This document shows, piece after piece, positions 6,471-51,171 of a stretch of DNA of 64,000 bases. Every line of letters starts with the position of its first letter. Positions within the stretch are counted from its first letter, which is position 1. The stretch spans positions 8,468 to 72,467 of the forward strand of contig CAZBMQ010000003.1 in NCBI GenBank assembly GCA_964493485.1. The letters are read 5' to 3'. Origin of the DNA: an uncultured Candidatus Saccharibacteria bacterium. GTDB taxonomy: Bacteria; Patescibacteriota; Minisyncoccia; Minisyncoccales; JANBVM01. The translations under genes and the position numbers were made by a program. The notes under the pieces were generated by a model that was given only the letters and a program-made list of their open reading frames with translations, did no database searches and was not told the origin of the DNA.

Positions 6471-6474
6471 AAAT

Positions 6475-8009: not shown

Positions 8010-8017
8010 TACTCCTG

Positions 8018-8101: not shown

Positions 8102-8202
8102 AGTTTACATAAACTAAGATCCTAAATCTCTAAATAATAGTATAAAATCCAATCTTCGATGGATTTGGAATACTTTATTTAGAATTTAGATTTAAAACTC
8201 TT

Positions 8203-30152: not shown

Positions 30153-30554
30153 TCAATATACCACTTCAATAGCACGGCTTGTGTTTTTATAAGCTCCGAT
30201 AGATTTTATGGTGGTAGTACCAGTAGTGCTGGTAGAAAAAGTTACATCATAGCTTGCCTCATTACTTAGAATAGTAGAGGTAGTATATGGGGCAATCAAA
30301 CCCCTGCAGACAGAAGTACAATATACTGGAGGACTACTTGTTGAACAAGCAGGAGGGTAGCAGCTTTTGTCTTTATACAAAACAGCCTCCACCCCGCTGT
30401 CAGCTGCATAAAAAGCAACTACAGAATAACCAAGTTCTCTTAATGTCTTACTTTGTCTAATAAAAATAATGCTTGTTCCCAAGGCAATGCCCAATACAAA
30501 ACTTAGAATTAAGACAGCAAGCATTATTGATAATCCTTTTTGGTTAATATCCAT
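30153..30554 (-). CDS. PilX-like minor pilin / pilus tip-associated protein (non-canonical N-terminus)
   Basis: N-terminal NQKGLSIMLAVLILSFVLGIALG resembles the PilX_N pattern (QRG..L...AL..L..LG) rather than the G|FTLIE prepilin motif. Last gene of the minor-pilin operon. Ser/Thr-rich C-terminal half. Confidence 0.4.
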   Translation of the reverse strand: MDINQKGLSIMLAVLILSFVLGIALGTSIIFIRQSKTLRELGYSVVAFYAADSGVEAVLYKDKSCYPPACSTSSPPVYCTSVCRGLIAPYTTSTILSNEASYDVTFSTSTTGTTTIKSIGAYKNTSRAIEVVY

Positions 30555-30567
30555 AATTTTTCAAGTT

Positions 30568-31158
30568 TTAATACAAAACATCAAGGTTTCTTTGAGACAC
30601 GGTGGTCTGAAGTTTCACAGCCGGAGAATTGGAAACCCCTCTTTTTTCAATCTCAAAAGAAAGTGTGACTCTTGGCTGATTATCATCATCTTGGTTCTCT
30701 CCATAAATCCTAAATTCAAGCTGCTTTACCTCCAAGTCGTCTGAAGTCAAAAACAAAATTTCTGAACCCCTTTCTTCTTTTATCCTTCCATTCTCTAAAT
30801 AAAAAGAATGACACTGTTCGTTATGGTCTTTAAAGTTTATTCTATGATTAGAATCTTCTAATTCATAATTCACATTGTCTCCAGAAAGACAACTTACTCC
30901 ATCTAAATCATCTTTCAACGCCATTCTTAAAGACCGACTCATATATTCTGCAACATAGGAAGCATTATCAGTAATTTCTCTAAGAATGAGGGCTCTGTTT
31001 TGTCCTTTTAAAGAAGAGACAAAAATGCCGGTTGGAGCAGCAACCAAAATCGCAAATATGGTGACAGCTACTATAAGCTCCACTAAGGTGTATCCTTTTG
31101 TTTTATTTAAACCTTCTGTTAACTCTTTGTTATGTTTATTTTTTGTATTATCTCTCAT
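30568..31158 (-). CDS. Prepilin-type (type IV pilin-like) minor pilin
   Basis: KGYTLVELIVAVTIFAIL, a class III signal with G|Y cleavage site and Glu+5. Confidence 0.7.
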   Translation of the reverse strand: MRDNTKNKHNKELTEGLNKTKGYTLVELIVAVTIFAILVAAPTGIFVSSLKGQNRALILREITDNASYVAEYMSRSLRMALKDDLDGVSCLSGDNVNYELEDSNHRINFKDHNEQCHSFYLENGRIKEERGSEILFLTSDDLEVKQLEFRIYGENQDDDNQPRVTLSFEIEKRGVSNSPAVKLQTTVSQRNLDVLY

Positions 31159-31687
31159 ACCAATTTGATAAATCTTCTACTACTTCTATGCTATGACTCC
31201 TTTCTCTCTCCTGCCATTCTACTATTACTTTCACTTCCATTTTATCAGACCCTTTTGGGGTAATAATTATTTTTCTTTTGAACTTTGTAGGTGTACCAGA
31301 GTCATAGCTGTAGAATCCATTTGTGTCAATATTAAGATATCTAAGATTGGAAGAATTACAATTTGAAACATTTGTCAAAGAAGTATAGATCTTATAGTCT
31401 CCCTCACAACAATTTGGAGATTGACAATTAGTAAGACCATCGTCCCAAGATACAGAGCTGGATCTTGACTCAAGCCAGTTGCTATCTCTGATATTTCTTA
31501 CTATTTCTATTCCTTCTTGAGCTAAATAAGCAGCAGTCACTTTAAGTTCAACCATTGAGGCGCCGGAAAGACTCTGACGGAGCAAAGCAAAAGCGCCTCC
31601 TATTCCTACAGTAAGAATAAAAATAGCAGTAATTACTTCCAAAAGAGTAAATCCTAACTTTTCTTTTTTGGGTAAGTATTCATTCAT
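31148..31687 (-). CDS. Prepilin-type minor pilin
   Basis: MNEYLPKKEKLGFTLLEVITAIFILTVG. The ATG at 31687 is preferred over the overlapping ORF-track start at 31738. Confidence 0.7.
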   Translation of the reverse strand: MNEYLPKKEKLGFTLLEVITAIFILTVGIGGAFALLRQSLSGASMVELKVTAAYLAQEGIEIVRNIRDSNWLESRSSSVSWDDGLTNCQSPNCCEGDYKIYTSLTNVSNCNSSNLRYLNIDTNGFYSYDSGTPTKFKRKIIITPKGSDKMEVKVIVEWQERERSHSIEVVEDLSNWYER

Positions 31688-31724
31688 TTTTTGCTCTTTG
31701 ATTATTATATAAAAAATACAACTT

Positions 31725-32300
31725 TTAATCGATATCAATTAAGCCTGCTTTATTTATAGTAATAGTTCTGGTCTTTGAGTAATCTGTTTCTAAAGCAAAT
31801 GTAATCTTTGTCTCTGTACCATTGTCTGACTGAATCCTTTTTATTTTTATCACGGGGTCTGGAGGCCTGAAATTGATAGAAATCTGATTAGAATCTATAG
31901 AATCCATCTTTATATCTATAATCACCACCCCCTTTTCTAATTCTATTGTTTCTATCTCCTCTCCTGCGGTATAAATCTCATCTCCGTTCTCATCTGCATA
32001 CAAAATATAAGATGTATTATTGGGAGATGTATCTCTGAAATAAATCCCATAGCCCGGGGGAACTCCCCCTCCACATTCTTGGCATTCCATACCTGACATA
32101 GTTTTCTCTTGAGCAACCCTTATATCTTGAGAAACCTGGTGAACTGCTCTGTTTAATGAAAATTCTCTTTCTCCCATTCTATAGCTTGCCAGTACAAAAG
32201 TAGTCAAAATAATAATCATTCCTGAGACAACCAAAAGCTCTACCAAAGTGAATCCTTTATATCTTCTTTTTAAATCATATTTTTTTATTAATTCAAACAT
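31725..32300 (-). CDS. Prepilin-type minor pilin (GspH/FimT-like)
   Basis: KGFTLVELLVVSGMIIILTTFVL. Confidence 0.7.
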   Translation of the reverse strand: MFELIKKYDLKRRYKGFTLVELLVVSGMIIILTTFVLASYRMGEREFSLNRAVHQVSQDIRVAQEKTMSGMECQECGGGVPPGYGIYFRDTSPNNTSYILYADENGDEIYTAGEEIETIELEKGVVIIDIKMDSIDSNQISINFRPPDPVIKIKRIQSDNGTETKITFALETDYSKTRTITINKAGLIDID

Positions 32301-32316
32301 TTACTTTTAAAATATA

Positions 32317-34845
32317 TTACGGAGAAATCTCACGCCATTGAGGAAGAGGAACTGTAACATACAACTTGTATGAAACCTGGTCTGATCTTCCATTTTGGTC
32401 AACAACTGAGAGGGTAACAAGACCTGAATTAGAGCTTAAAGCTTCAAATGTAGCTGAAGGATTTTGGGCGTTGCTTGTAGATGGAGTACCGTCTGTAAAT
32501 GTCCAGCTCCAAGAAGTAATAGGCCAGTAGCCGCCTGATGTGTTTTCAGAACCTGTGGAGGTGTCTTTGAAATACACCCTTGCTCCTTCTGATACCTTGA
32601 AACCATCACAGCTCTGCCAACCTGAGTCAGGTTTCAAGGAACATTCAAAGTCTGCGATGATGTCTTGGCTAACATAAAAATCATGAGTTGTGGCATCTGT
32701 CGAACCTGCTGTATCTTCAACCTCCAGTTCAGCATAATACCACTGACTGGCAGGCATATTGGCAGGTAAGGTTATATCACAAATTGCTTCATTTTGTCCT
32801 GAGGTCAACATATTATCTGTGCATACTGTATAATCCTCTTGATATGGGGTCCCTCCCTGATAAAAGATAGACCATGTAGAAGTGACAATATCGTTGTTAT
32901 CGTCTGGATCAAGATAGGATCTTTCATAACTATATGCTACTCCGCAGTTTGGACATTCAATATCAGAATTATAACTACCAGCTACAACATCAGGATAGCA
33001 TTCATTTTCATCTTGATATCTCACACATCCTACTGATACATTGCGGAATCCAAACAAAGCACTGCTGTCGCTGCCGGGATACTCAATATATATATCATAG
33101 TCCTTATCCATTGAAGAAGAACCAAAATATATATACACTGCTCCACAATCTGAACATTTTGCGTCAGAATAAGGAGCGCCTACCACCACATCATCATAGT
33201 TGTCTTTATTAATATCTTCTGCAAAAACTGCACTTCCAAAATCAATAAGATTTAAAAGAGAACCAGGTTCATTTCTTGGATATTCAAGATATACATCATA
33301 ATCGCTGTCCATTGAACTTCCTCCATAATATACATACACAGCTCCACAATAAGTGCATTTGACATCAGACCAATTGGCGCCAGAAATCACATCATCATAG
33401 CCATCATTATTTACATCTCCTGCAGCAACTGAAAAACCCAAATGAGCAATATCACTTCCTGGATATCTTAAATAAACATCATAATTGCCATCCATCGAAG
33501 AAGAACCATAATAAACAAATACAGCTCCACCGTCACTACACTCATAATCAGAAAGAGAAGCTCCCACTATTGCATCATCATAACCATCATTATTTACATC
33601 TCCTGCAGCAGCAGCTTCTCCCAATCTCGCAGTTGAATCATTCCAAGGATATTGAAGATATACATCAGAGGTAGCTGTGGCTGAAAGAAAAGCAGAGCCG
33701 AAATAAATATAAGCTGCACCACAGTCAGTGCACTTTGTATCATCAGTAAACGCTGTAACTATCACATCGTCAAAATTGTCATTATTAAAATCGCCAAAAT
33801 ACACTGATTTACCAAAATTTCCTATTAAAGAATCACTGTCTGTTCTTGAATACTCAAGATACACATCATAATCGCCATCCATTGGATTGCCTCCATAAAA
33901 AATATAAGCTGCCCCGCAATCAGTGCATTTTGCGTCAGATTTAGGAGCCCCAACAACTACATCATCATAGCCATCATTATTAATATCTCCACCTGAAAAC
34001 ACTATATAACCAAATTCTGAACCAGCATCATTTTTAGGATATTTAAGATATAGGTCTGGACTAGAAGTAGAGGGCATTGAATTAGAGCCATAAAAAACAT
34101 ATACAGCTCCGCTATCTGTGTAATCTGCATCAGCATAAGGAGCACCTACAATAATATCTTTGTAACCATCATTATTCAGATCTCCCGTAGCAGATACAGC
34201 AAGTCCATACTGAGAATTATCTGTCAAGGGATATTTAAGGTAGATATTGTGGACAGAATAAAAATCAGTAGATTGGTTTATTAAATTAAAAATACAGTCT
34301 TTATTGTATGTTCCCCATACACCGTTGCAAGCAGCGCCTTGACATAAAGAACCATCACAGGAAAAAGCAGCTGTGGGAGGAGTATTTTCTGGAGCTCCTC
34401 CTCCTTCACTTACATCAACTTCTTTAGCACAATTAGCCGGGCAGTTTCCCGGATCACCTGACCAATTTCCATCATTATCCTGTACCCTTAATTTGGCACA
34501 AAAAGTCCCTGTAGTAGTATAAGTATGTTTTACAGTATCGCTAGTGGTTGTTATTTTTGGAGAACCATCTCCAAAATCAAATTCATACTGAGTTATTGTG
34601 CCATCAGTATCATGACCTGACCCTGTAAATGTAACCTGTAATGGAGGCAAACCGTTAGCAGGAGTTCTTGATAAAGAATCGCAAACAGGAGGAATAGTAT
34701 ATCCTACTGTTACCTTTACATAATCTGTCGCTAAATCATAATCTATTGATATTACGGCTTTGACAGCAAAGCTCTTTAATAGAAAACTACCTATTATTAA
34801 CAAGAAGATGCTCCATATTAAATTCTTTGATTTCTTAAAAAACAT
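32317..34845 (-). CDS. Giant secreted surface protein: N-terminal PKD domain, ~7 FG-GAP/integrin-alpha-like repeats, C-terminal PKD module
   Basis: Signal/TM N-terminus. PKD motif (VTFTGSGHDTDGTITQYEFDFGDGS). Repeated units (DLNNDGYKDIIVGAP, DINNDGYDDVVVGAP, DVNNDGYDDAIVGAS, ...). Its C-terminal 103 aa are identical to those of the protein at 40717..42531. Confidence 0.7.
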   Translation of the reverse strand: MFFKKSKNLIWSIFLLIIGSFLLKSFAVKAVISIDYDLATDYVKVTVGYTIPPVCDSLSRTPANGLPPLQVTFTGSGHDTDGTITQYEFDFGDGSPKITTTSDTVKHTYTTTGTFCAKLRVQDNDGNWSGDPGNCPANCAKEVDVSEGGGAPENTPPTAAFSCDGSLCQGAACNGVWGTYNKDCIFNLINQSTDFYSVHNIYLKYPLTDNSQYGLAVSATGDLNNDGYKDIIVGAPYADADYTDSGAVYVFYGSNSMPSTSSPDLYLKYPKNDAGSEFGYIVFSGGDINNDGYDDVVVGAPKSDAKCTDCGAAYIFYGGNPMDGDYDVYLEYSRTDSDSLIGNFGKSVYFGDFNNDNFDDVIVTAFTDDTKCTDCGAAYIYFGSAFLSATATSDVYLQYPWNDSTARLGEAAAAGDVNNDGYDDAIVGASLSDYECSDGGAVFVYYGSSSMDGNYDVYLRYPGSDIAHLGFSVAAGDVNNDGYDDVISGANWSDVKCTYCGAVYVYYGGSSMDSDYDVYLEYPRNEPGSLLNLIDFGSAVFAEDINKDNYDDVVVGAPYSDAKCSDCGAVYIYFGSSSMDKDYDIYIEYPGSDSSALFGFRNVSVGCVRYQDENECYPDVVAGSYNSDIECPNCGVAYSYERSYLDPDDNNDIVTSTWSIFYQGGTPYQEDYTVCTDNMLTSGQNEAICDITLPANMPASQWYYAELEVEDTAGSTDATTHDFYVSQDIIADFECSLKPDSGWQSCDGFKVSEGARVYFKDTSTGSENTSGGYWPITSWSWTFTDGTPSTSNAQNPSATFEALSSNSGLVTLSVVDQNGRSDQVSYKLYVTVPLPQWREISP
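32359..32667. repeat. 309-bp perfect direct repeat, copy A (encodes the shared C-terminal PKD module)
   Basis: Checked line by line against 40762..41070 at a constant offset of 8403 nt. No mismatches or indels were seen. Confidence 0.85.
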
Positions 34846-34852
34846 AAAATCT

Positions 34853-35641
34853 CTATTTACATGTATTGGTATATTGAATAATAGCTCCTAATGCCAGCAC
34901 AGTGGTATGAGGACTATCAGCCCAACTTCCATTTTCTTTTTGACATTTTAAAATATTTTCAATCCATTCTTGCTTCACAGGAAACCCCGCATATCCAAGA
35001 AATAAAGCTCTTTCACAATATACATCTAAAAAAGCTATATTATTGCAAAAAATAGAAAAATCTTCTTGTTTCGTATCTTTATCCTCAGCTGCTATCAATT
35101 CTTTGGCTAATTCTTTCATTAATGGATCTAAAGTATTTCCATAGCATCCTTTTTCTTTCATTAAAGACAATGCGTGTAAAAGATGAATTGAATTATATCT
35201 TACATCCCTTTCTACTTCATTTATATCCTTTAACACTTCATTATAATCAATATTTTTGCAACACATAGCTTTTATTGTAATTCGTTCAAGTAAAGAAAAG
35301 AAGGATATTTCTTTTAGTAGCTCAGAGATATTCTGATTTCTACAAGAAGAATTGTAAAGCTCAAAAAAAAGCTTTTTGTTGCTATTTTCCTCTGCACTCT
35401 TTATCTTCCAAAGCTCCTCTAGTCTCTCATCATGGCATATTTTATTAAGTTTTTGAATTAAAAGAATTATTCCTACATCAAACTTTTTTTCTGTAGTTAA
35501 AAGAAAAACTATTCCTTTCTCAATTGCGCTGCTGCTTTGTCTCTTAAAGGGTTCCGAATAATTAATTACCAACCAAAACAATATTCCTAATATTAATAAT
35601 GGGCCTAAAAGTAAAAGTATGTGTTTTATTGTAAACTTCAT
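34853..35641 (-). CDS. Hypothetical membrane-anchored protein (262 aa) with a weak prenyltransferase/squalene-cyclase-like repeat at the C-terminus
   Basis: N-terminal TM. The C-terminal segment QKENGSWADSPHTTVLALGAI resembles a Q..dGgW...T..AL repeat. The match is weak. Confidence 0.3.
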   Translation of the reverse strand: MKFTIKHILLLLGPLLILGILFWLVINYSEPFKRQSSSAIEKGIVFLLTTEKKFDVGIILLIQKLNKICHDERLEELWKIKSAEENSNKKLFFELYNSSCRNQNISELLKEISFFSLLERITIKAMCCKNIDYNEVLKDINEVERDVRYNSIHLLHALSLMKEKGCYGNTLDPLMKELAKELIAAEDKDTKQEDFSIFCNNIAFLDVYCERALFLGYAGFPVKQEWIENILKCQKENGSWADSPHTTVLALGAIIQYTNTCK

Positions 35642-35655
35642 TTTAATTTATTCTA

Positions 35656-37986
35656 CTAATACTGACATACACAATATCTCCAATAACCTGAGACAGATGC
35701 GTTACAACTTTGAGAGTATGAGCTATCTCTAGCCCAACATTCTTTGTTTCCCCATGCATCAGCTTTTACCATAGGCTGAGCTGCATTAACACCATTAGAA
35801 TGACAAAGAGAACATCCTCCTAGATTACAACAAACTGTACAATTATTATCGTCATTCCAATTAGCTTGTACACATCCACCGTAATTAGAACAAAGTCCTT
35901 CACATGTTCCTCCTTGAGCTGACATTCGCCAACAAGCCTTTCCTCCCTGCCCTGCACAGCCGTTACATCCATCATCATAGAAATACACATTCCCTTCACA
36001 TACCCTACAAACTCCCTGATAACATCTTGCATTACTTCCTGTGCACATATAATAATTACTTCCCCAATTTGAAGTAACATCAACATCGCATCTCCCAGAA
36101 CCACCACATGTTTTACATACTGCACATCCTATCTCAATGGTAGTTATACAACCATCTCCCACCTTATATGCTGTCTCTGCAATTGCAGTACCAGGAAATG
36201 CATACCAATCGCTATAACGAACTCTTCCTGCATCAGTACACTTACTGCTACCCGCCAAACAACCTCTATAATATCTTTGAGCTGAACAAGCATAGGTAAC
36301 ACAATCTATTGTTCTATCACAATAAATGCTTGATGAAGGATTTATTTCGCTCCCAGCACTACACACTTTTCCGGATGTCGAAAGATAGGCAATACTATCT
36401 CCTACATCAGGTCCTGCTGCACCTCCTGAACCGTCGCAAGCAAGTTTATCTCTTTTCTTTTGGCAAGCGCCAACACAACCATTGAATGAAGATAAACTAG
36501 AATAATAAGTATCTGAACCTGTAGCTTCCTGTCCCGCTCCTATACAAACATATCCTGCGGCAATATTTACAACATCATCCTCTCCTGTATCATATGCACA
36601 GTTATGAGAAGCATCACACCTTAATTTGTCTCTTTGCTTCTGACAGGTATAAGGAGAACCCTCACCTGTGCACGCGTTGAAATCAGAATATCCGCATACT
36701 GCAATGCCTGTTGTACCACAAGTATCAGTAAGTGTATATCCTTCTTGAGCATAAACTGCACGTGAATAAGCATCAGTATGGTCTGTGGGCGCTCTACAGC
36801 TTCCAGAACCGTTACAAGAGATAAACCACTCAGTAGCTGAACAATCCCCATCATCACAATCTTCATCATAATTACAATAAGCAGAAGGAGAAACTGGTGT
36901 CTCCTGTCCTGCCCCTGTACATACATAGCCTGACCTCACATAGGTTGTGGCACCTGAGGATTCGCAAGAACCAGCTCCATCACAATTACCAGTAGTCTGT
37001 CCAATTGTACATTCATTAATACAACTCATAGTAATGTCGCATTGGTTTCCGGGATCAGTACCGGCTGTCGCATATCCACAAGAACCATTTTGACAAGCGC
37101 GACAGATACCTGTACATCCTTCATGCTGTTCATTATTAGGCCAATTTTCACAACTCCCACTTACGCAATGAGTACAATCCCCTGTACAATTGACTCCTTC
37201 GTCCCCTGTATAAGGCACTGAGCTAGTGCTCACTCCATCACAATAATAACAAACACTACTCACCTCTATGTTTTGGTTCACTGGCCGCACGGTACAATAT
37301 CCATCTGAACCAATACCACTACAGGCTTCACAGTCTCCTGTACAAGGACCATCACAACACACCCCATCTACACAATATCCGGAAATACATTCACCCGAAG
37401 AACCGCAAGACTCTCCCAATGAAAGACCCGGCCTAGGACTAGAAACCATAATAGTTAAATGTTTGGTAGTAGGATCAATATAATCTGCAATATTGGTTGT
37501 AATATTGCCTAATAAAGTATCATCTATCTGCTGAGTAAAATCTTTACTATCCAATTCTTCCCAATTGTTTGTATTCCTGTTCCAAATATAAAAATAAGTA
37601 ACTGCATTCTGATCAATCCCTCCATATCCCTCCCATTCAAAATCTAACGAAGTAATATTATTTATGTTCTCGTTTATGGTAAATGTAAAGATATGAGTAT
37701 TCCATTGATTTGGTGGAGGAAGCAAAAGCTCCCATCTTGAATCATCGCTTGAAGAGATAGCATTATACTCTCCAGAGAGAGCTTCTGTATCATAGTCACT
37801 TGGATCTGATGGCTGACTTCCTTGTTTTCTATAAGCCCATTTGTCTACTCCAGCATTTGAAGAAAAATCATACATGCTTGTGGCTGCAAAAACCCTAAAA
37901 GAAAATCCAAATATGCCTAGAACAAATAAGACAAGAATTAGATAAATAATAACAATGTCAGTTTTGAATCTCAGAAATTTAAACAT
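35656..37986 (-). CDS. Large secreted cysteine-rich protein (776 aa) with internally duplicated Cys-rich modules
   Basis: Signal peptide (FGFSFRVFA). A Cys-free domain of ~150 aa. The remainder is packed with CxxC/CxxxC spacings (e.g. CTGDCEACSG, CTGDCTHCVSGSC, CTGICRACQNGSC). Internal duplication: CQKQRDKLRCD... vs CQKKRDKLACD.... Confidence 0.6.
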   Translation of the reverse strand: MFKFLRFKTDIVIIYLILVLFVLGIFGFSFRVFAATSMYDFSSNAGVDKWAYRKQGSQPSDPSDYDTEALSGEYNAISSSDDSRWELLLPPPNQWNTHIFTFTINENINNITSLDFEWEGYGGIDQNAVTYFYIWNRNTNNWEELDSKDFTQQIDDTLLGNITTNIADYIDPTTKHLTIMVSSPRPGLSLGESCGSSGECISGYCVDGVCCDGPCTGDCEACSGIGSDGYCTVRPVNQNIEVSSVCYYCDGVSTSSVPYTGDEGVNCTGDCTHCVSGSCENWPNNEQHEGCTGICRACQNGSCGYATAGTDPGNQCDITMSCINECTIGQTTGNCDGAGSCESSGATTYVRSGYVCTGAGQETPVSPSAYCNYDEDCDDGDCSATEWFISCNGSGSCRAPTDHTDAYSRAVYAQEGYTLTDTCGTTGIAVCGYSDFNACTGEGSPYTCQKQRDKLRCDASHNCAYDTGEDDVVNIAAGYVCIGAGQEATGSDTYYSSLSSFNGCVGACQKKRDKLACDGSGGAAGPDVGDSIAYLSTSGKVCSAGSEINPSSSIYCDRTIDCVTYACSAQRYYRGCLAGSSKCTDAGRVRYSDWYAFPGTAIAETAYKVGDGCITTIEIGCAVCKTCGGSGRCDVDVTSNWGSNYYMCTGSNARCYQGVCRVCEGNVYFYDDGCNGCAGQGGKACWRMSAQGGTCEGLCSNYGGCVQANWNDDNNCTVCCNLGGCSLCHSNGVNAAQPMVKADAWGNKECWARDSSYSQSCNASVSGYWRYCVCQY

Positions 37987-38087
37987 TCTATTTTTGCTAA
38001 CAATAAGTTATAATAACTCTAATAATTTAATTATCATTTCTTTTTCGTAATTATATCACAATAACAAAAATCAAAAAACTTAATAAA

Positions 38088-42541: not shown

Positions 42542-43351
42542 TTATAACAAAAGATTAAAGTAAAGATTAATTAATTTATCTCCATAGAAAAAAGCCAAAA
42601 AAGTTCCTGTGATTAAAAATGGAGCAAACGGAATTTCTGATTTTAATTTCTTTTTACCAAGAAAAATTAATATTATACCTATTATAGCCCCTATAAAAAA
42701 ACTTAAAAAAATAGCCACCGCAATCCTTGGAAACCCCAGAAAAATACCCATAAAAAAGGCTAATTTCACATCACCCATACCCATTCCTTTTCCTCGAGAA
42801 ATAAAAACTATTGCCAAAAAAAATAGACTTGCTCCAATACCTGAGAAAAGAATATTAAATATATTGTATTTAAAAAAAGGAGAAAAGAAAATCCTTGAAA
42901 TTAAATACCACACAGCAGTCGTCAAAACAGCGGGATAGATTACTCTATCTGGAATAATATAATACTTTACATCATAAACAAAAATGACAATCAGAAAACA
43001 ACAAATAATAAATAAAAAAAAGAGGTCTAAAACCCAAAAAAGAACAGGGATAGAAAATAATGATTCTATGTTTTTTAAAAAAATAAAAGAAAATAAAAGC
43101 CCTGTTGATAACTCCACTAAGGGATATTGAATAGAGATAGGCTTTTGGCAATACCTACATCTTCCTTTTAAGATAATAAAACTTAAAATAGGAATCAAAT
43201 CAATGGCATGTAAGGTATGACCGCAATAAGGGCAGTAAGATCTTTTGGATAGAAAGCTTTGTTTTTTAGAAAGTCTATATATAACGCAGTTCAAAAAAGA
43301 ACCAATTATCAATCCAAATATAAAAATGAAAAATGAAAAGAAAATATTCAT
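42542..43351 (-). CDS. pilD: Prepilin peptidase (A24 family, PilD)
   Basis: N-terminal Zn-finger CPYCGHTL...CRYCQKPI. Catalytic-Asp region [16 protein letters not shown]. Polytopic, 269 aa. Confidence 0.85.
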
Positions 43352-43390
43352 TTTAAAATATCTACTATCTCAATTTCTTTTTATAAAAAA

Positions 43391-43924
43391 CTAAAAACAG
43401 GTACAGCTACCCATTACACTGGGTTCTTCTTCTAACTCACACTTTTTTGTTCCTTTATGGGAAGCACAAAAATATACCTTATTACCAGGAGTTGCAGGTT
43501 CTTCTTCTAATATAGCGTAAGCGCAAAACCAATCTCCAGCAGAAAGACTGCCAAGATCCGGATCACTGCATAATATGTTGAAGCGGTTATCTACCCATAC
43601 ATAATCAGTACATGCCTCTCCCGGACATTGCGGATCATGCAAGGGGCTCAGATAACGATAAATCGCAGGAACTCCTCCCTCTTCTGGGGGAGCGGCAGTA
43701 AAATATCTATCGTTAAAGCCAAAGTATATTCCTTGAGCTGAAACCAATTGTCTCATATCTGACTGTCTCATCGCATCTCTTGCGCTGCTTCTTGCTCCTT
43801 TTAAATATGTAAAAACCACAGTAGAAAGTGTTCCAATAATAGCAATAACAACCAATAGCTCGATCAAAGTAAAACCTTTAAGTTTTTTAATCCTAAAGTG
43901 TTTGCTTCTTAATACTTGCATCAT
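43391..43924 (-). CDS. Type IV pilin (major pilin paralog 3)
   Basis: [22 protein letters not shown] class III signal. C-terminal Cys pairs consistent with a D-region disulfide. Confidence 0.8.
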   Translation of the reverse strand: MMQVLRSKHFRIKKLKGFTLIELLVVIAIIGTLSTVVFTYLKGARSSARDAMRQSDMRQLVSAQGIYFGFNDRYFTAAPPEEGGVPAIYRYLSPLHDPQCPGEACTDYVWVDNRFNILCSDPDLGSLSAGDWFCAYAILEEEPATPGNKVYFCASHKGTKKCELEEEPSVMGSCTCF

Positions 43925-44029
43925 ATAATTTAAAAAATTAATAAGTTTTAAAAATAGGCCTTTATTGTGTTTATTATATTATAATTTAAAAAAACAAGCG
44001 AGAAAAAAACTGAAAAACTATATCTTAAC

Positions 44030-44557
44030 TTACATTGCAAATTTAATACAACTACTTAATGTTGGAAGATGGCCTGCTGTATATGTCTCATCAGAACATA
44101 CTTCCTTAACCCCTCTATTTGAACTTACAAAATACCGGTGGGAAGTAGGACATCCCTCAAGATTTTCTAATTCTGCAAAAACACAAAACACATCACTTGT
44201 TGTAGCAGTTTCTGTATTGTCTAACCATATATAATCTATATGATTGGAACAGACTCCATCAGGACATAGTGGATCATGTAAGCCTATCAGATAGTTTCCA
44301 ATAGGAGGAGTTCCATCTGTTTTCTCAGTATTCTCAAAATATGTCTCATTGTCTATATAATACATTTCCTGCGCTGTAGCCAATTGTCTCATATCTGTCA
44401 TTCTATTTGTATCTCTTGCTCTCCTTCTTGCCCCTCCCAAAGACACCAAAACAATTCCAGATAAGGTTCCAATAATAGCAATAACAACCAATAGCTCAAT
44501 CAAAGTAAAACCTTTTTCTTTTTTAAGCCTTAAAAATCTCCATTTCAAGGTCTCCAT
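44030..44557 (-). CDS. Type IV pilin (major pilin paralog 2)
   Basis: [30 protein letters not shown]. The N-terminal coding DNA is identical to paralog 1 over 102 bp. Confidence 0.8.
   Translation of the reverse strand: METLKWRFLRLKKEKGFTLIELLVVIAIIGTLSGIVLVSLGGARRRARDTNRMTDMRQLATAQEMYYIDNETYFENTEKTDGTPPIGNYLIGLHDPLCPDGVCSNHIDYIWLDNTETATTSDVFCVFAELENLEGCPTSHRYFVSSNRGVKEVCSDETYTAGHLPTLSSCIKFAM
44427..44528. repeat. 102-bp perfect repeat (pilin 5' coding segment), copy 1
   Basis: Identical to 45103..45204 by direct reading. A near-identical shorter segment lies in the third pilin at ~43836-43885. Confidence 0.8.
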
Positions 44558-44625
44558 AAATAAAAATACATATAAAACTTATTTTATTAATTATACTAAA
44601 AAGTACGGAGAAAAATAAAGTTAAA

Positions 44626-44656
44626 TTGGCGGGTTTTTGCCCGCCAATTTTTCTCT
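44626..44656 (-). terminator. Putative terminator hairpin (ttggcggg-tttttg-cccgccaa) between pilin genes
   Basis: 8-bp GC-rich stem with A/T-rich flanks on both strands. Downstream of the pilin at 44700..45206. Confidence 0.35.
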
Positions 44657-44699
44657 CCATGATAACTGATTTTCAAAACTATCTACCTCCTAATCTAAA

Positions 44700-45206
44700 C
44701 TACAGATTAAAGTCACGACAATTTGCTAATGTGGGGCAATTTGCAGTATCATCCCGTGCAGTATCACTACAAACTTCTTGGACTCCTTTATCAGAAGCAA
44801 CATAGTATCGGTAGTTTGTAGTACAGCTTCCAAGGTTTTCTAATCTAGCAAAGGCGCAAAAACTAGTTGTAGCGGTAGTACCGTTGTTAACCCACACATA
44901 ATCTACATGAGTAGTACAAGTACCACCAGGACATTGTGGATCATGTAAAGCAACTAAATAATTTCCAATTGCAGGAATACCTGCTGTACAACTGCCTGGA
45001 GTTCCATTAGCATAATATCCTTCATGATCTCCATAATACATCTCTTGAGCAGTAGTTACTTGTCTCATATCAGACTGTCTGTTTGCATCCCTTGCCTTAC
45101 TCCTTGCCCCTCCCAAAGACACCAAAACAATTCCAGATAAGGTTCCAATAATAGCAATAACAACCAATAGCTCAATCAAAGTAAAACCTTTTTCTTTTTT
45201 AAGCAT
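44700..45206 (-). CDS. Type IV pilin (major pilin paralog 1)
   Basis: [50 protein letters not shown]-terminal Cys residues. Confidence 0.8.
45103..45204. repeat. 102-bp perfect repeat (pilin 5' coding segment), copy 2
   Basis: Identical to 44427..44528. Confidence 0.8.
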
Positions 45207-45305
45207 GATAAATTATTAGTATAATAATTTCATAATTAATGTTTTACATTTTCGACCTTTTATCTTTTTTATCTATTTTTTATTTTAGCATAATTTTTAA
45301 AAAAC

Positions 45306-46508
45306 CTAAATAGACATCATCTGATACATAGGCATTAGTATTGAAAACATTAATCCTCCTACTATCAAACCTAAAGAAACAATCAATAAAGGCTCCAATA
45401 TTCCCAACATAGCAACCACACCTTCCTCCACCTCTCTCCTGTAAAAAAGAGCTATCTTCATTAAGCTGGTGTCTAATGTTCCTGTCTTTTCACCTACCAA
45501 TGCCATCTGAACAAACACAGGAGGAAAAATTTCTGGATAAAGAGCCAAAATAGAAGAAATAGGCACACCCCTTCTTACTTCATCTTTGGTCTTTAGAATA
45601 GCTTTTTTGTACATAGAATTTCCAACCACATCAGCTGATAACTCTAAGGCCTGGGCTATCATTATTCCTCCTGAAATCAAAGTGGAAAGATTCTCAGCTA
45701 ATCGGGCTAAATACATTGTTTTCATCACTGTACCTATAACTGGAATTTTAAGAAGAATCCTGTCTATAACATCTTTTCCCTGCTCTGTTTTATAAATTCT
45801 ATAAAGAACAAACAAAAAGACAAAAACTCCCAATATAAAAAAGAAGCCGTAGTCTTTTAAAAAACCTGCAGCTTTCAATATCTTCATTGTAAATTCCGGC
45901 ACCTCTGCTCCGCTTTCTTCAAGCACTGTCTGAAATTGGGGGATTACAGTATAAATCATCAAAATTATAACAAAGCTCACCAGCATAAGAATAAAAATTG
46001 GATATACCATAGCTCCCTTTATCTTTGAAGCCAACTGATATTGTCTTTCTAAATAGTCTGCCAAGTAATTTAATGACTCTGCCAATTTTCCTGAAGCTTC
46101 ACCTGATTTTATCATAGAGATATATAGGTCAGAAAAAATCTCAGGATAGCGGGAAAGAGCCTTAGACAAAGCTGTTCCTCCTTCAACATCTTCTGAAATA
46201 TTTAGAATCTTCTCTCTAAAATCTGCATTTTTTGTCTGACTTGATAAAACCCTCAAACTTTCCACTAAAGGAACCTTTGCATTAAACATCATTGCCAATT
46301 GTCGTGAAAAGATAACAATATCTTTTTGAGATATTCTACTGAAAAACTCTAACTTCTTTGCATAAAATGGAAGTTTTTCTTCCTCTAAGTATGTAACATA
46401 AAATCCATGCTTCTGTAAAAGTGAAAGAGCTGCATCTTTTGAAGAAGCTTCTACAATTCCAGCCCGAACATCTCCTTCTTTAGTTCTGGCTTGATAATTA
46501 AATTTCAT
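45306..46508 (-). CDS. pilC: Type IV pilus inner-membrane platform protein PilC (GspF family)
   Basis: Two GspF repeats, 3 TM segments, 400 aa, adjacent to pilT/pilB. Confidence 0.9.
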   Translation of the reverse strand: MKFNYQARTKEGDVRAGIVEASSKDAALSLLQKHGFYVTYLEEEKLPFYAKKLEFFSRISQKDIVIFSRQLAMMFNAKVPLVESLRVLSSQTKNADFREKILNISEDVEGGTALSKALSRYPEIFSDLYISMIKSGEASGKLAESLNYLADYLERQYQLASKIKGAMVYPIFILMLVSFVIILMIYTVIPQFQTVLEESGAEVPEFTMKILKAAGFLKDYGFFFILGVFVFLFVLYRIYKTEQGKDVIDRILLKIPVIGTVMKTMYLARLAENLSTLISGGIMIAQALELSADVVGNSMYKKAILKTKDEVRRGVPISSILALYPEIFPPVFVQMALVGEKTGTLDTSLMKIALFYRREVEEGVVAMLGILEPLLIVSLGLIVGGLMFSILMPMYQMMSI

Positions 46509-46522
46509 TTATAAACAAAAGT

Positions 46523-47593
46523 TTAATGCCGAATGAGTATTCTTAATTCATTAGGAGACAGAGAATAAGAAAGAGCTGTTTCTAAAGAAACCTCTTTTCT
46601 TTTAACTAAATCTGCTAAAGACCGATTAAGAGAAATCATACCTAACTCAAGATTGGTTTCAATTACCATTGGAATCTCATGGATTTTATTTTCCCTGATT
46701 AAGTTTGCTACAGCTGGAGTAGCAATCATTACCTCACATGCAGGAATCAATCCGCCTTTGATTCTGGGTACTAGTCTTTGAGACACAACCCCTAAAAGAG
46801 AACCTGAAAGCTGGGCCCTTATTTGGTCCTGCTGTTGAGAAGGAAAAGAGTCTACAATTCTGTGAATCGTTTGAGCTGCGGAGTTAGTGTGTAATGTGGC
46901 AAACACCAAATGACCTGTCTCTGCAGCAGTAATAGCTGTAGCCATTGTTTCTGGATCTCTCATCTCTCCTACCATAATCACATCTGGATCCTGCCTAAAG
47001 GTTGAACGGAGTGCAGTAGAAAAGCTCATTGTATCCTGACCCACCTCTCTCTGGTCTATAATTGCTTTGTCTGGAGTAAACACATATTCAATAGGATCCT
47101 CAATCGTCACAATATGGTCAGTCCTTGTATGATTAATTTCATCAATCAATGCCGCCAAAGTAGTAGATTTTCCTTGAGATGAAGGTCCGCATATTAATAC
47201 AAAACCTTGGGTAGGTTTGGTAAATTCATACAACACAGGGGGGAGATTAAGTTCTGTAATAGTGCGAATTTTAGCAGGAATTAATCTCAAAGCGCAAGAA
47301 ATGTATCCTTTTTGAAAAAATATATTTACCCTAAACCGCGCTTCTTCTCCGAATTTATAAGAAAAATCTATCTCCTTCTCCTTCAAAAATCTCTCTTTTT
47401 GCGCTACATTCATTAATGTAAAAGCTAAATTCTCTGTATCTTCTGGAGAAAACTTCTCTTCTTTTACCAATGGAACAAGCTCTCCTGCAATCCTCAATAC
47501 TGGAGGATGTCCTACTGAAATATGCAAATCAGAAGCCTGTTCTTTTATGGTTAAGGCAAGCAATTTTCTAAGCTGACTCAAATAGTTTGGCAT
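46523..47593 (-). CDS. pilT: Type IV pilus retraction ATPase PilT
   Basis: LICGPSSQGKSTTLAALID (Walker A), DHIVTIEDPIEYVF, Asp and His boxes. 356 aa and no N-terminal GSPII_E_N domain, as expected for PilT rather than PilB. Confidence 0.85.
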   Translation of the reverse strand: MPNYLSQLRKLLALTIKEQASDLHISVGHPPVLRIAGELVPLVKEEKFSPEDTENLAFTLMNVAQKERFLKEKEIDFSYKFGEEARFRVNIFFQKGYISCALRLIPAKIRTITELNLPPVLYEFTKPTQGFVLICGPSSQGKSTTLAALIDEINHTRTDHIVTIEDPIEYVFTPDKAIIDQREVGQDTMSFSTALRSTFRQDPDVIMVGEMRDPETMATAITAAETGHLVFATLHTNSAAQTIHRIVDSFPSQQQDQIRAQLSGSLLGVVSQRLVPRIKGGLIPACEVMIATPAVANLIRENKIHEIPMVIETNLELGMISLNRSLADLVKRKEVSLETALSYSLSPNELRILIRH

Positions 47594-47620
47594 AAATTTA
47601 TCAAATTATTATTTTATAAT

Positions 47621-47989
47621 CTAATCTTTTAATACCTTTTTAATTTCATCTACCACCTCTGCTGGAGTATAATGGGCTTTGATAAAATATTTTACTACTC
47701 CCATTTCCAAGCCTTTCTCAACTTCCTCTTTCTGACCAAGATTAGAAAGAATAAAAACCTTTAAATCTTTTAACTTCTTGTCTTTTTCAATTTCTTTTAA
47801 AATCTGCCAACCATCAATATGAGGAAGAACAATATCCAATACCAATAAATCAAAATGTTTTTCCTTTAATTTTTTCAAACCTTCCAATCCATCAGTAGCA
47901 ACATCTACATCAAAACCCATTTCTTTCAATTTTGTGTGATAAATATCTACTAAAAATGGGTCGTCTTCAATTACTAAAATATGCTTCAT
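47621..47989 (-). CDS. Stand-alone CheY-like response-regulator receiver (PilH/PilG-like)
   Basis: MKHILVIEDDPFLVDIY...DLLVLDIVLPHIDGWQIL...KVFILSN; 122 aa, receiver domain only. Confidence 0.8.
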   Translation of the reverse strand: MKHILVIEDDPFLVDIYHTKLKEMGFDVDVATDGLEGLKKLKEKHFDLLVLDIVLPHIDGWQILKEIEKDKKLKDLKVFILSNLGQKEEVEKGLEMGVVKYFIKAHYTPAEVVDEIKKVLKD

Positions 47990-48028
47990 ATTAATAGAAA
48001 GAAGTTAATTATTAATTATATTTAATTA

Positions 48029-49750
48029 TTATTTCTCTTGAGTTACCCTTAATACCTCAGTTAGAGTAGTAACCCCTTCTAATATTTTTAATATCCCATC
48101 CTGCCTCATAGTCACCATTCCTTGCCTTTCAGCTTCTTCTTTTAACTTCTTTTCTGAAAGGTCTCCTAATACAATTTCAGAAAGCCTGTCTGTCATCTCT
48201 AAAATCTCAAAAACTCCAATTCTTCCAGAAAAACCTTGGTTGTTGCAATCTCTGCAGCCTACAGCTTCCCATAAATAAAGCGTCTTGGGAACTTTTACTT
48301 CTTTTCTTAATTCTTCAGGAAAACCTTCTATCTCTCTCAAAATCATATCTCTGACCTCTTTTGAGGCTTTCACTTTCTTCTTGCATTTATCGCACAGTCT
48401 TCTTACCAATCTTTGACCTATGACTAAACTAAGTGTCGGAGGTATTAAATAAGGTTGAACTTTTAAATCAACTAATCTTGGAATAACCCCCAATGAATCA
48501 TTAGTATGCAGTGTTGAAAAAACCATATGCCCTGTCAAAGCAGCATGCGTCACTAAAGAAGCTGTCTCTTCGTCTCTTATCTCTCCCACCATAATAATAT
48601 CAGGATCCTGTCTTAATATAGATCTCAATCCATTTGCAAAACTATATCCAATCTCAGGTCTCACCTGGGACTGATTGATTCCTTTTAAAAAATACTCTGC
48701 CGGATCTTCAAGGGTCACAATATTTACTTCTTCTTTGTTTAAAATCTGTAAGATTGCATACAAGGTAGTAGTTTTTCCTGAACCAGTAGGTCCTGTGCTT
48801 AGAACCAGTCCATAAGGTTTTTTAATAGCTTTCATTATAGCCTCGCTATGCCTTTTTGACAATCCCAAATCCTCAAATTTTTTCAATCCTACTGTAGGAT
48901 CCAAAACCCTCAATACTACTTTCTCTCCAAGAGTGGTAGGGAAGGTAGACACCCTGAAATCAATATCTTTATTTTCAATCCTAGCAGAAAATCTGCCGTC
49001 TTGGGGAACTCTTGTCTCATCTAGTTTTAAATTAGACAATACCTTTATTCTAGAAACTATTGCTTTATGAAGTCTTATCGGCAAAAAAATAGAAGAATGC
49101 AATGCTCCCAAAAATCTAAAACGAGCCCTTAATTTATCTCTTCCAGGCTCGATATGAATATCTGAGGCCTTACCTTCAACCGCATATCTTAAAAGCACAG
49201 CTACCACTTTGGAGATAGGGGCTTCTTCTACCAACCTTTCTATCTCTGCTTCTGTGGCTCTAGATACTCCTTCTATTTTTAATTCTTCTTCCAGCTCTTC
49301 CAATGCTTTTCCCACTTCTCTCTTTAATGTTCTGTGTTGTTTTAATATTTTATTAAATGTGTTTGGAGTTATCAAAAAAATCTTATAGTCAAACTTTCCT
49401 CTTCTTGCTAAAAATTTTAAAGCTTCCTGGGCATCTAAATCCTCAGGATATACCATTCCTACTTCTAAAATATTGTCTTTCTTAGACAAGGCTACCATCT
49501 CATAATGCTTGGCGGTCTCTTCAGGAATAAGCTCTAGCACCTCTAACTCTACTTGTTTGGGGTCTACTTCTTTTAGAGGAATATTTAAATATTCTGATTT
49601 TAGATTAAACAAAACCTCTTCTGTTACAATTCCTTTTTCTAAAATAAACTCCTCTTCTTTCTTATCTGATGATTCCAATTCCTGTTTAAAAACATCAAAT
49701 TGTTCTTTTTTTAAAAATCCTTTCTTTAATAATTCTTCTAATAAAGGCAT
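48029..49750 (-). CDS. pilB: Type IV pilus assembly ATPase PilB (GspE family)
   Basis: N-terminal GSPII_E_N-like domain. LSTGPTGSGKTTTLYAIL (Walker A). Tetra-Cys motif (CDKC...CRDC). 573 aa. Confidence 0.9.
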   Translation of the reverse strand: MPLLEELLKKGFLKKEQFDVFKQELESSDKKEEEFILEKGIVTEEVLFNLKSEYLNIPLKEVDPKQVELEVLELIPEETAKHYEMVALSKKDNILEVGMVYPEDLDAQEALKFLARRGKFDYKIFLITPNTFNKILKQHRTLKREVGKALEELEEELKIEGVSRATEAEIERLVEEAPISKVVAVLLRYAVEGKASDIHIEPGRDKLRARFRFLGALHSSIFLPIRLHKAIVSRIKVLSNLKLDETRVPQDGRFSARIENKDIDFRVSTFPTTLGEKVVLRVLDPTVGLKKFEDLGLSKRHSEAIMKAIKKPYGLVLSTGPTGSGKTTTLYAILQILNKEEVNIVTLEDPAEYFLKGINQSQVRPEIGYSFANGLRSILRQDPDIIMVGEIRDEETASLVTHAALTGHMVFSTLHTNDSLGVIPRLVDLKVQPYLIPPTLSLVIGQRLVRRLCDKCKKKVKASKEVRDMILREIEGFPEELRKEVKVPKTLYLWEAVGCRDCNNQGFSGRIGVFEILEMTDRLSEIVLGDLSEKKLKEEAERQGMVTMRQDGILKILEGVTTLTEVLRVTQEK

Positions 49751-49765
49751 AATTTTATTTTTTAA

Positions 49766-50062
49766 TTAAGGCTGCTGGGTTGGTAGATAAGGAACAAAAG
49801 GGTTTTCTCTTCCTAATTCACCTTCAAAATCAGGTATCTTTTCAATTGGCTGAAGTTCTTTTAATAATGGATTGTCCAATACCTCAAAATCTATTTTAAT
49901 TTTTTTAAAATGTTGCTGAATAAACACTTCTTCTGTGGAAGTCTCCTGCTGCATATAAAAATACCACACTCCTATAAATATACCAGCCGCAACGAGAACT
50001 CCTAAAAATATAAAAATCAATCTCTTCTGTCTCTTTATTTGCTCTTGAAATGTAATTGCCAT
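49766..50062 (-). CDS. Small single-TM protein in the pilMNO-pilB operon (possible PilP-like component)
   Basis: 98 aa, one TM (LIFIFLGVLVAAGIFIGVWYF). The call rests on operon position only. Confidence 0.3.
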   Translation of the reverse strand: MAITFQEQIKRQKRLIFIFLGVLVAAGIFIGVWYFYMQQETSTEEVFIQQHFKKIKIDFEVLDNPLLKELQPIEKIPDFEGELGRENPFVPYLPTQQP

Positions 50063-50079
50063 AGTTATAAAAATTGAGC

Positions 50080-50619
50080 TTAGTAGATTGGGTTTTCATT
50101 TATAAAATAAACCTTTATTATAAGATCAAATCCAAAAATTTTTTCCTTTTCTGAAAAAGTAAGATCAATATTTGTAATCTCAATTAATCTGTCTGACTTT
50201 TCCACTAGGGAAACAAATTGTTTAAAACCCTGATAATCTCCTTTTAGAGCAACTCCTATTTGGGCGACCCCAATATTTTTCCCCATTTCAGAAGAGGGAA
50301 AAACCTCTGTTCTTATCTGGTCTAATACAAGCCCGGATTGCGAAGCTGCTTTTTGTAAAAAATTTAAAAGCTCTGATAAACGAGGACTTTTAGGCAAAGC
50401 GGCCTCTATCTTTTCTAAAGAATCTTTTCTCTTTTTCAATTCTTCTGATATTCGCTGAACCTCCTTTAAATAATTCTCTTGTGATAATAATTCTCCTTCC
50501 TTTACTAATATCTTCTGTCTAATATCATTAAGTTCTCTGTATTTTGGAAGTACTGCCACAAATACAAGCAACAGAATAAAGGAAAAAACTATAAAACTAT
50601 AGAATGAATAATTTTTCAT
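50080..50619 (-). CDS. PilO-like type IV pilus alignment protein
   Basis: Short N-terminus, single TM, coiled-coil, periplasmic-type domain. Called by position after pilM/pilN. Confidence 0.5.
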   Translation of the reverse strand: MKNYSFYSFIVFSFILLLVFVAVLPKYRELNDIRQKILVKEGELLSQENYLKEVQRISEELKKRKDSLEKIEAALPKSPRLSELLNFLQKAASQSGLVLDQIRTEVFPSSEMGKNIGVAQIGVALKGDYQGFKQFVSLVEKSDRLIEITNIDLTFSEKEKIFGFDLIIKVYFINENPIY

Positions 50620-50620
50620 A

Positions 50621-51148
50621 TTAATATTTAAAAAGCTCTTTATTTAGCAAAAGAGTCAAGTCGAACTCAATCCCTCCTTTTTTTCCAAAACCAACATTAC
50701 CTATTTTTAATCTCTCCACTAAAGGAGATTGTTTAAAAATAGAAATCTGTTGACCCAAAGAAATAAAGTTATCTGTTCCTCCTTTAAAATCAACCTCTCT
50801 AAGAACGGACTTTATTTTTGTATCAGAAAAGAAAACCTTTGGATGGGTATTTTTCTCTAAAAAATCAAAAAGTTTTGAGTTAATAATATGGGCTTCAAGA
50901 AAAGGAGCAAAATCCTTTATTTTCTTTTTGTAATAAAGTACTTCTTTTTCCAAAGAGAGCATTTCCTCACCTTTCTTGCTTTCTATCTTATTTTCTAACT
51001 CCTGAAGATAGACAGTTGTCTTTGAAATAAGATGAAGAAAGATAAAATATCCTATTACTGTGGCTATCAGCAAAAACACCAAGAAATAAAACATAAATAC
51101 CTGCCATTTTGGTGCTTCTTCAACTGGTTTTGGTATTATCTCTACCAT
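50621..51148 (-). CDS. PilN-like type IV pilus alignment protein
   Basis: Single TM after a short cytoplasmic N-terminus; coiled-coil; immediately downstream of pilM. Confidence 0.5.
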   Translation of the reverse strand: MVEIIPKPVEEAPKWQVFMFYFLVFLLIATVIGYFIFLHLISKTTVYLQELENKIESKKGEEMLSLEKEVLYYKKKIKDFAPFLEAHIINSKLFDFLEKNTHPKVFFSDTKIKSVLREVDFKGGTDNFISLGQQISIFKQSPLVERLKIGNVGFGKKGGIEFDLTLLLNKELFKY

Positions 51149-51171
51149 AATATTATTATGTGGTTATATAA

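Follow-up and report, generated by a model that had tools for sequence, protein, structure and literature searches.

The cysteine-rich protein and its four regions

The gene considered here lies on the minus strand of a stretch of 64,000 nucleotides (the window) from contig CAZBMQ010000003.1 of assembly GCA_964493485.1 (uncultured Candidatus Saccharibacteria bacterium). It encodes a protein of 776 residues in which cysteine accounts for 9.0% of the sequence, the highest proportion among the 49 open reading frames (ORFs) of the window (median of the others 0.8%). An initial reading made from the letters alone (the sequence-only reading) had singled it out for this extreme Cys content. An identical protein (P0001) is present in public databases, where its record carries the name 'hypothetical protein' and a match to AF_1625_C, and nothing more. 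The protein was dissected by local phmmer comparison over 60 homologues. This divides it into regions D1, D2, D3 and D4, which differ in how they are distributed among the homologues, and throughout we infer its function from this architecture and from the gene context. The features of the gene are as follows.

35656..37986, minus: whole ORF, ATG to stop; 776 residues, 70 Cys; stop codon at 35656-35658
37885..37986, minus: residues 1-34, Sec-type signal peptide or N-terminal anchor (MFKFLRFKTD, a 20-residue hydrophobic core, then RVFA/AT, the slash marking the cleavage site), identified by inspection and by comparison with 11 members of the family
37417..37884, minus: D1, residues 35-190, Cys-free beta-sandwich; probable region of Pfam PF27237 (AF_1625_C)
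37042..37416, minus: D2, residues 191-315, one module A followed by two C-x3-C-x2-C-x4-C mini-modules; 20 Cys counting C316
36151..37041, minus: D3, residues 316-612, larger Cys modules with an internal duplication (322-447, 448-507, 508-612); 26 Cys in 317-612
35659..36150, minus: D4, residues 613-776, C-terminal Cys-rich domain with 24 Cys, delimited by its phmmer distribution

The Cys-rich peptides quoted in the sequence-only reading are all present (215-231, 267-279, 291-305, 562-576, 448-487 and 508-547), and the Cys-free N-terminal domain that it placed before them is equally clear. Residues 1-190 contain no Cys, the first being residue 194, while residues 191-776 contain 11.9% Cys and 13.8% Gly, with five His in these 586 residues. 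The CxxC, CxxxC and CxC spacings that it emphasised do occur, but none is enriched: CxxC (n=10) and CxxxC (n=8) are close to the 8.2 each expected from composition-matched shuffles, and CC (n=2) and CxC (n=1), against the same expectation of 8.2, are depleted about 4- to 8-fold. These spacings therefore provide no metal-site signature, and the Cys are spread as in disulfide domains. The Cys totals are even for the whole protein (70) and for D2, D3 and D4 (20, 26 and 24), the parity per region being weak evidence because the region boundaries were set post hoc.

The proposed internal duplication was confirmed. Residues 448-495 and 508-555 align with a score of 81, compared with a shuffle mean of 25.5 (z=11), and are contained in a larger repeated unit (322-431 versus 504-624; z=9.7 against shuffles). 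There is no tandem repeat within the gene at the DNA level, and the duplication, which is seen in the protein alone, is therefore old.

Residues 1-34 include three positive charges, a hydrophobic core of 20 residues and the sequence V-F-A/A. The 11 other proteins with which they were compared likewise combine a charged n-region with a hydrophobic core, and most of them have a small-x-Ala site directly before D1. As far as can be judged from these sequences, the preserved N-terminus supports export through Sec and agrees with the earlier description of the protein as secreted. The class III pilin signal G/F-x-x-x-E has no match in the first 60 residues, and neither N_methyl (PF07963) nor TIGR02532 matches the protein. 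Lacking a class III signal, it is therefore not itself a pilin and cannot polymerise into a filament as one.

Searches with the protein gave no match in Pfam (2025 copy, E<=1), in NCBIfam or among PDB sequences, and profiles of D1+D2 and of D3+D4 gave none in the PDB at E<=1. The homology to metallothionein or ferredoxin families that would have spoken against the initial reading was not found (Pfam, E<=1). A literature search found no paper on the protein, on AF_1625 or on Cys-rich pilus-associated proteins of the candidate phyla radiation (CPR); a 2026 paper on the 'Pam' pilus of CPR describes a chaperone-type system that is unrelated to this protein.

Among the 60 homologues, D1 was found in two proteins of Candidatus Nealsonbacteria (P0002 and P0003) and in P0043, of the agmatine-deiminase family. 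A precomputed PF27237 match is available for P0001 and for its orthologues P0002, P0003, P0087, P0133 and P0132. D1 is probably the AF_1625_C domain, since PF27237 is listed on D1-bearing proteins only; one D1 homologue, P0043, is without it. The AlphaFold2 (AF2) model of D1 is composed of beta strands arranged as a beta-sandwich, with a predicted local distance difference test (pLDDT) score of roughly 65-92, and Foldseek returns weak matches of jelly-roll or carbohydrate-binding-module type (best E 3e-3).

Module A of D2 has the pattern C-x5-C-x4-C-x4-CC-x3-C-x3-C-x2-C-x8-C, including 'CxSGYCVDGVCC', and is modelled at pLDDT 83-95. This 10-Cys module has 130 matching segments in 32 homologues, including pilin fusions and the long arrays of Polyangia. 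It aligns with dozens of the 'CxSGxCVDGVCC' repeats of Polyangia/Myxococcota proteins, with 10 conserved Cys over about 65 residues. Those proteins contain long tandem arrays, however, whereas the 776-residue protein combines a single module A with different modules. A few distant matches of Cys-rich repeat arrays are annotated as Disintegrin or Dicty_CTDC.

D3 modules occur in 26 proteins, one of them from an archaeal metagenome-assembled genome (MAG). Residues 316-495 are modelled by AF2 as all-beta with pLDDT up to 98; no usable model was obtained for residues 496-776 (the second D3 unit and D4). Foldseek found no neighbour of the confident D3 model in the PDB (best E 0.31, TM<=0.1), nor was one found among viral structure models. 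D3 also appears to lack a curated family. The resemblance to cystine-knot or granulin repeats that had been suggested is not supported by the profile and fold searches. As in granulin, cystine-knot and epidermal growth factor (EGF) domains, the modules are small, Gly-rich, disulfide-dense, extracellular and arranged in tandem, but the confident D3 region extends over about 180 residues (316-495) compared with units of 30-60 residues, and there is no match by profile (Pfam, NCBIfam), PDB sequence or fold. The Cys-rich part is also not made of one kind of module, as had been supposed, but of three distinct regions with different phylogenetic distributions.

The C-terminal D4 region and the D1...D4 family

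D4 contains a series of near-invariant positions (W641, GQGG 680-682, C685-W686, W710-x-D712, P738 and the R770-x-CVC-x-Y end), and about 20 of its Cys are conserved at >=80% in 58 sequences. It is rare. An exhaustive phmmer search of 1.84 billion representative proteins identified 72 clusters, of which 42 have E<=1e-10, and a scan of GTDB genomes with the D4 alignment identified two loci, via one peptide pattern. The view that such proteins are unusual in bacteria needs some qualification: it holds for D4, but D2 and D3 modules are present in dozens of extracellular proteins from CPR, Polyangia and an archaeal MAG.

The position of D4 is nearly constant: in 55 of 57 proteins it reaches to within three residues of the C-terminus, and an export signal heads nearly all proteins that carry it. 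Pfam analysis of 71 D4 proteins identified N_methyl in seven, T2SSG in two and T4SS_pilin (which is unrelated to the type IV pilin motif) in five, together with fn3, PKD, VWA, SpaA-like, dockerin and similar domains. The homologous Cys modules likewise co-occur with PKD, fn3, FG-GAP, VWA and dockerin, all of them extracellular, and in P0006 and P0009 the D2+D4 pair is joined to prepilin N-termini. Judged from these architectures, D4 is an interchangeable C-terminal head, which is grafted also onto type IV pilins, type IV secretion system (T4SS) pilins and other secreted scaffolds. It appears to be an undescribed, rare head with no curated family.

An alignment anchored on D4 (A3) found no homologue among PDB sequences, the best match (E 0.3) being a spurious one to an S-layer protein. 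A W-N-D motif had provided a lead to C-type-lectin-like domains (Fib_succ_major/CTLD). This assignment was rejected, since hhalign against P0011, which bears Fib_succ_major, gave a probability of 0.9%; this is a sequence-profile test only, and a weak one.

D1 is also carried by 14 of 80 D4 proteins, with a D1-D4 spacer of between 0 and about 600 residues. We define the D1...D4 family as proteins with a signal, D1, an optional Cys-rich spacer and a C-terminal D4, and the 776-residue protein qualifies as a member. The spacer is absent from P0103 (381 residues), consists of D2 alone in P0003, P0087, P0095 and P0066 and of D3 alone in P0002, and includes both D2 and D3 in the 776-residue protein and in P0074 (949 residues). 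The constant parts are thus the two ends, D1 and D4, with the Cys-rich modules between them as an exchangeable spacer of variable length. D4 is seen as a swappable head also in a Patescibacteria genome (L006), where five tandem paralogues share a common N-terminus and Cys modules but have differing C-terminal heads, D4 being present on one only.

Outside CPR, contig CAZXHT010000025.1 (labelled uncultured Myxococcales; L007) encodes, at 6225-8504, a Cys-rich protein of 759 residues in high-GC DNA with a lipoprotein-like N-terminus and a C-terminal D4 (36% identity, E 4e-24). D4 is therefore not strictly confined to CPR: either the domain has passed from one of CPR and Myxococcota to the other, or the contig has been binned wrongly. 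A further member, P0132 (527 residues, D1-D2-D4), is encoded at 7582-9165 of a contig with 31.5% GC (ENA ERZ27250158 k141_1227010; L010). Its neighbours are almost all unannotated and one has the archaeal-named domain MJ0753_N. The D1...D4 family may extend to DPANN-like archaea.

Operon structure and conservation of the locus

The surroundings of the 776-residue gene include the following features.

37987..38087, no strand: divergent intergenic region, presumed promoter; 101 nt between the 776-residue gene and a plus-strand UbiA-family gene
34853..35641, minus: 262-residue protein with an N-terminal hydrophobic segment; no family match
32317..34845, minus: 842-residue surface protein, PKD, six FG-GAP repeats (beta-propeller-type) and a PKD-like tail (FG-GAP 1.9e-41, PKD 1.8e-18)
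30153..32300, minus: four small pilin-like genes (191, 196, 196 and 133 residues) with weak ComGD, PilV and GspJ/IV_pilin_GFxxxE matches
42542..52251, minus: type IV pilus machinery (PilD, three pilins, PilC, PilT, a response regulator, PilB, PilO, a candidate PilN with no Pfam match, and PilM)

The gene is located inside a complete minus-strand type IV pilus cluster of about 22 kb. Read along the minus strand, the order is PilM, candidate PilN, PilO, PilB, response regulator, PilT, PilC, three pilins, PilD, a PKD protein and a 339-residue protein. The block is then interrupted by the plus-strand UbiA-family gene and continues with the 776-residue gene, the 262-residue gene, the 842-residue PKD/FG-GAP gene and the four pilin-like genes, the first three of which have GFTL[VL]E-type prepilin N-termini. 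LigA, FtsW and RpoB follow. The 776-residue gene is thus the first of the minus-strand block that leads into the FG-GAP protein and minor pilins, as the initial reading had stated. From this gene to the last pilin (30153) the gaps are 14, 7, 16, -14, -11 and 13 nt, which fits an operon. Transcription must begin within the intergenic region of 101 nt, since the gene upstream is read in the opposite direction. A promoter scan identified two minus-strand promoter-like matches there, the number of matches in the region (44 versus 42.2) being not above chance.

The eight most Cys-rich ORFs of the window (3.0-9.0% Cys) are all in the pilus cluster, between 30153 and 45206. They include surface proteins, three pilins, a minor-pilin-like protein and the 262-residue protein. 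This concentration implies that the organism makes systematic use of disulfides outside the cytoplasm.

The order is kept in three other genomes (CP179887.1, CP061210.1 and CAYVDD010000001.1, referred to as L001, L002 and L008), the first two of which are annotated as Candidatus Nealsonbacteria. In all four Nealsonbacteria-like genomes, including that of the window, a D1...D4 gene is followed by a large variable surface protein, four pilin-like genes and LigA; FtsW follows LigA in the three syntenic genomes. Identities between the window and these three genomes are 66-74% for LigA and 70-73% for FtsW, compared with 38-59% for the minor pilins and 39-49%, over parts of the length only, for the Cys-rich protein; the surface proteins of the block are 39-57% identical over partial lengths. 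The block has thus been kept as its surface components diverge fast. The 842-residue protein shares about 200 residues with the protein that takes its place in each of the three genomes. The 262-residue protein has no BLAST match among the genes compared in L001, L002 and L008 and no counterpart was seen at that position; on this comparison its gene appears to have been inserted into the operon in this lineage specifically.

Other features of the cluster should be noted. A 300-nt direct repeat of 96% identity (32315-32614 and 40718-41017) forms the common C-terminal tails of the PKD proteins at 32317-34845 and 40717-42531. This suggests a recent duplication or gene conversion between the two PKD surface genes, which differ in their central regions. 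The 339-residue ORF (39622-40641, minus) carries the motif 'AWTGPSQNPPGGNVAPP' directly after its N-terminal hydrophobic segment. The same N-terminus ('AWTxPxxxPPxGN') is also present on the Cys-rich tandem paralogues of L006 (6951-13602) and on several D4 or D3 proteins (P0108, P0069 and P0010). It may serve as a signal, so far undescribed, for sorting, anchoring or assembly. Finally, a stand-alone response-regulator receiver gene (47621-47989, minus) is located between PilB and PilT, a hint that in this CPR genome the extension and retraction of the pilus may be controlled by a phosphorelay.

Possible function of the protein

We consider, with a probability of roughly 0.55, that the gene encodes a Sec-exported, disulfide-stabilised, modular surface binding protein of adhesin type, which acts together with the type IV pilus in an episymbiont resembling Nealsonbacteria. 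Candidatus Nealsonbacteria attach to Methanothrix filaments, and type IV pili have been proposed to serve in this attachment (bioRxiv 10.1101/2022.04.20.488981). The host would probably be a methanogen such as Methanothrix. The 70 Cys would form about 35 intradomain disulfides, with D2 and D3 acting as a rigid, protease-resistant spacer, and D4, possibly together with the D1 beta-sandwich, would bind a ligand on the host surface. The protein might be docked on the minor-pilin tip complex, or anchored or secreted, and would cooperate with the pilus in attachment; docking at the pilus tip is a conjecture. Its disulfide character is suggested by the even Cys totals, the conserved Cys of D4, the Cys spacings (with no CxxC excess and depletion of CC and CxC), the small number of His and the all-beta models of module A and D3. 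The link with the pilus is drawn because D2+D4 is found fused onto pilins, because there is precedent for modular pilins (PMC8179133) and because the operon is conserved.

The precedent is provided by Streptococcus sanguinis, in which adhesion modules are grafted onto type IV pilins, a vWA module in PilB and a lectin module in PilC (Raynaud et al. 2021, PMC8179133). The D2+D4 cassette on the prepilin N-termini of P0006, P0009 and others is similarly a binding module on a type IV filament, and the 776-residue gene is itself part of a minor-pilin operon. The two cases are also alike in that the organism, as a member of CPR, has no PilQ and probably lacks a Gram-negative envelope (bioRxiv 10.1101/335083). 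The gene differs in that its product has a Sec-type N-terminus with no class III G/FxxxE, and in that D1, D3 and D4 are neither vWA nor lectin domains. The protein is a variant of known themes, namely adhesion modules on type IV pili and non-pilin proteins in pilus operons.

PilY1 and PilC of the Pseudomonas and Neisseria type IV pili are non-pilin adhesins that are encoded with minor pilins and are thought to be located at the tip. The 776-residue protein resembles them in being large, Sec-exported, non-pilin and encoded with minor pilins. The beta-propeller domain of PilY1/PilC was not found in it (Pfam at E<=1; no PDB sequence match), and the FG-GAP propeller protein at 32317-34845, two genes downstream, is a closer analogue.

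A number of observations weigh against a protein that binds a host in concert with the pilus. Two more distant D1...D4 relatives (in L009 and L010) occur in unrelated contexts, away from pilins. A general adjacency of D4 and pilin genes was rejected, a pilin-motif ORF being present within 5 kb in one of the 15 metagenomic D4 loci of >=5 kb (28 loci in total). Of 17 complete metagenomic D4 genes, 14 encode stand-alone Sec-type proteins and two encode pilin fusions. The N-terminus, as read from the sequence, would fit a retained membrane anchor as well as a cleaved signal, and any physical association with the filament is conjecture since the protein has no prepilin motif. No Dsb, MdbA or VKOR gene is present within the window. 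AF2 models D4 with pLDDT<50, and no structural or sequence match provides D1, D3 or D4 with a ligand or activity.

Several of these observations favour a generic surface or secreted binding protein that is independent of the pilus, for example one anchored at its N-terminus whose Cys-rich stalk projects D4 through the wall or S-layer, the proximity of the pilin genes in one clade being inherited gene order without functional coupling. The stand-alone, Sec-type nature of most D4 proteins and their location away from pilin genes, the contexts of the L009 and L010 relatives, the missing prepilin motif and the lipoprotein-like N-terminus of the D4 protein in the non-CPR MAG (L007) would all be explained in this way. 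We nevertheless regard it as somewhat unlikely. The six-gene block has been retained in four genomes at 66-74% LigA identity despite its fast-evolving surface genes, the intergenic gaps are 7-16 nt or the genes overlap, and elsewhere the D2+D4 cassette has been grafted onto pilins.

A second alternative, which we judge improbable, is a secreted effector directed against the host or competitors (a disulfide-rich toxin, an enzyme inhibitor or the carrier of a lytic factor) that is exported with or through the pilus machinery, as type IVb pili export TcpF and CofJ. TcpF of Vibrio cholerae and CofJ of enterotoxigenic Escherichia coli (ETEC) are secreted colonisation factors, dependent on type IVb pili, that bind the minor-pilin tip and are not Cys-rich. 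The 776-residue protein shares with them a Sec signal, a non-pilin nature and a gene in a pilus cluster beside a minor pilin. Toxins and inhibitors often contain small disulfide-rich domains, and D3 and D4 belong to no known fold or family. On the other hand, PDB sequence and Foldseek searches revealed no sequence or fold similarity to TcpF or CofJ, and no catalytic or toxin family was detected in Pfam, NCBIfam or PDB sequence searches. The display of D4 on structural filaments and long stalks suits binding rather than a diffusible activity, and a length of 776 residues with repeated modules is adhesin-like.

The third, a metal-binding or redox Cys-cluster protein of metallothionein or ferredoxin type, already raised as an option in the sequence-only reading and serving for example in metal sequestration or extracellular electron transfer, is highly improbable: the very high Cys content, a C-x2-C-x2-C stretch (621-627) and an anaerobic lifestyle, which might allow thiols to survive outside the cell, are outweighed by the Cys spacings and five His described above, the lack of any Fer4 or metallothionein match at E<=1, the export signal, the even Cys counts and confident beta-rich models typical of disulfide domains.

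Little is understood of the way in which CPR episymbionts recognise a host and hold on to it; type IV pili have been implicated, but the factors that confer specificity are still to be identified. The locus offers candidates, in the form of an operon that combines fast-evolving surface proteins with minor pilins, a rare D4 at the ends of filaments and stalks, and a D3 fold with no solved relative. A more speculative proposal, to which we attach a low probability, is that D4 is a hitherto undescribed head with which ultra-small symbionts (mostly CPR, possibly also DPANN) recognise their hosts, and which they attach to several unrelated scaffolds, including type IV and T4SS pilins, 'AWTxPxxxPPxGN' proteins and Cys-rich stalks. 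In Nealsonbacteria the D1...D4 protein would then be a non-pilin adaptor with one end on the minor-pilin/FG-GAP tip complex and the other on the sheath of the archaeal host, D2 and D3 setting its reach. If this were true, the locus would be what determines the specificity of a bacterium-archaeon episymbiosis.

The protein also has implications for folding. Since it probably needs about 35 disulfides in an anaerobic, genome-reduced bacterium, it implies that a capable system for oxidative folding exists outside the cytoplasm. Such folding would be supplied by MdbA-like oxidoreductases, in which CPR genomes are reported to be enriched and whose genes often adjoin VKOR (bioRxiv 10.1101/335083).

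One further difference between the syntenic loci concerns the region upstream of the D1...D4 gene. In L001 (1-9900), L002 (1-9860) and L008 (1-9920), five to seven radical S-adenosylmethionine (radical-SAM) genes directly precede the orthologous locus. The stretch includes ORFs of 67-73 residues and, in L001 and L002, a family 2 glycosyltransferase (GT2) and a PMT_2 protein; it is followed by a protein of about 385 residues (with a weak Peptidase_A24 match in L002) and one of about 150 residues. From its gene content it looks like a modification cluster or one resembling those for ribosomally synthesised and post-translationally modified peptides (RiPPs). It is absent from the window, where the UbiA-family gene takes its place.

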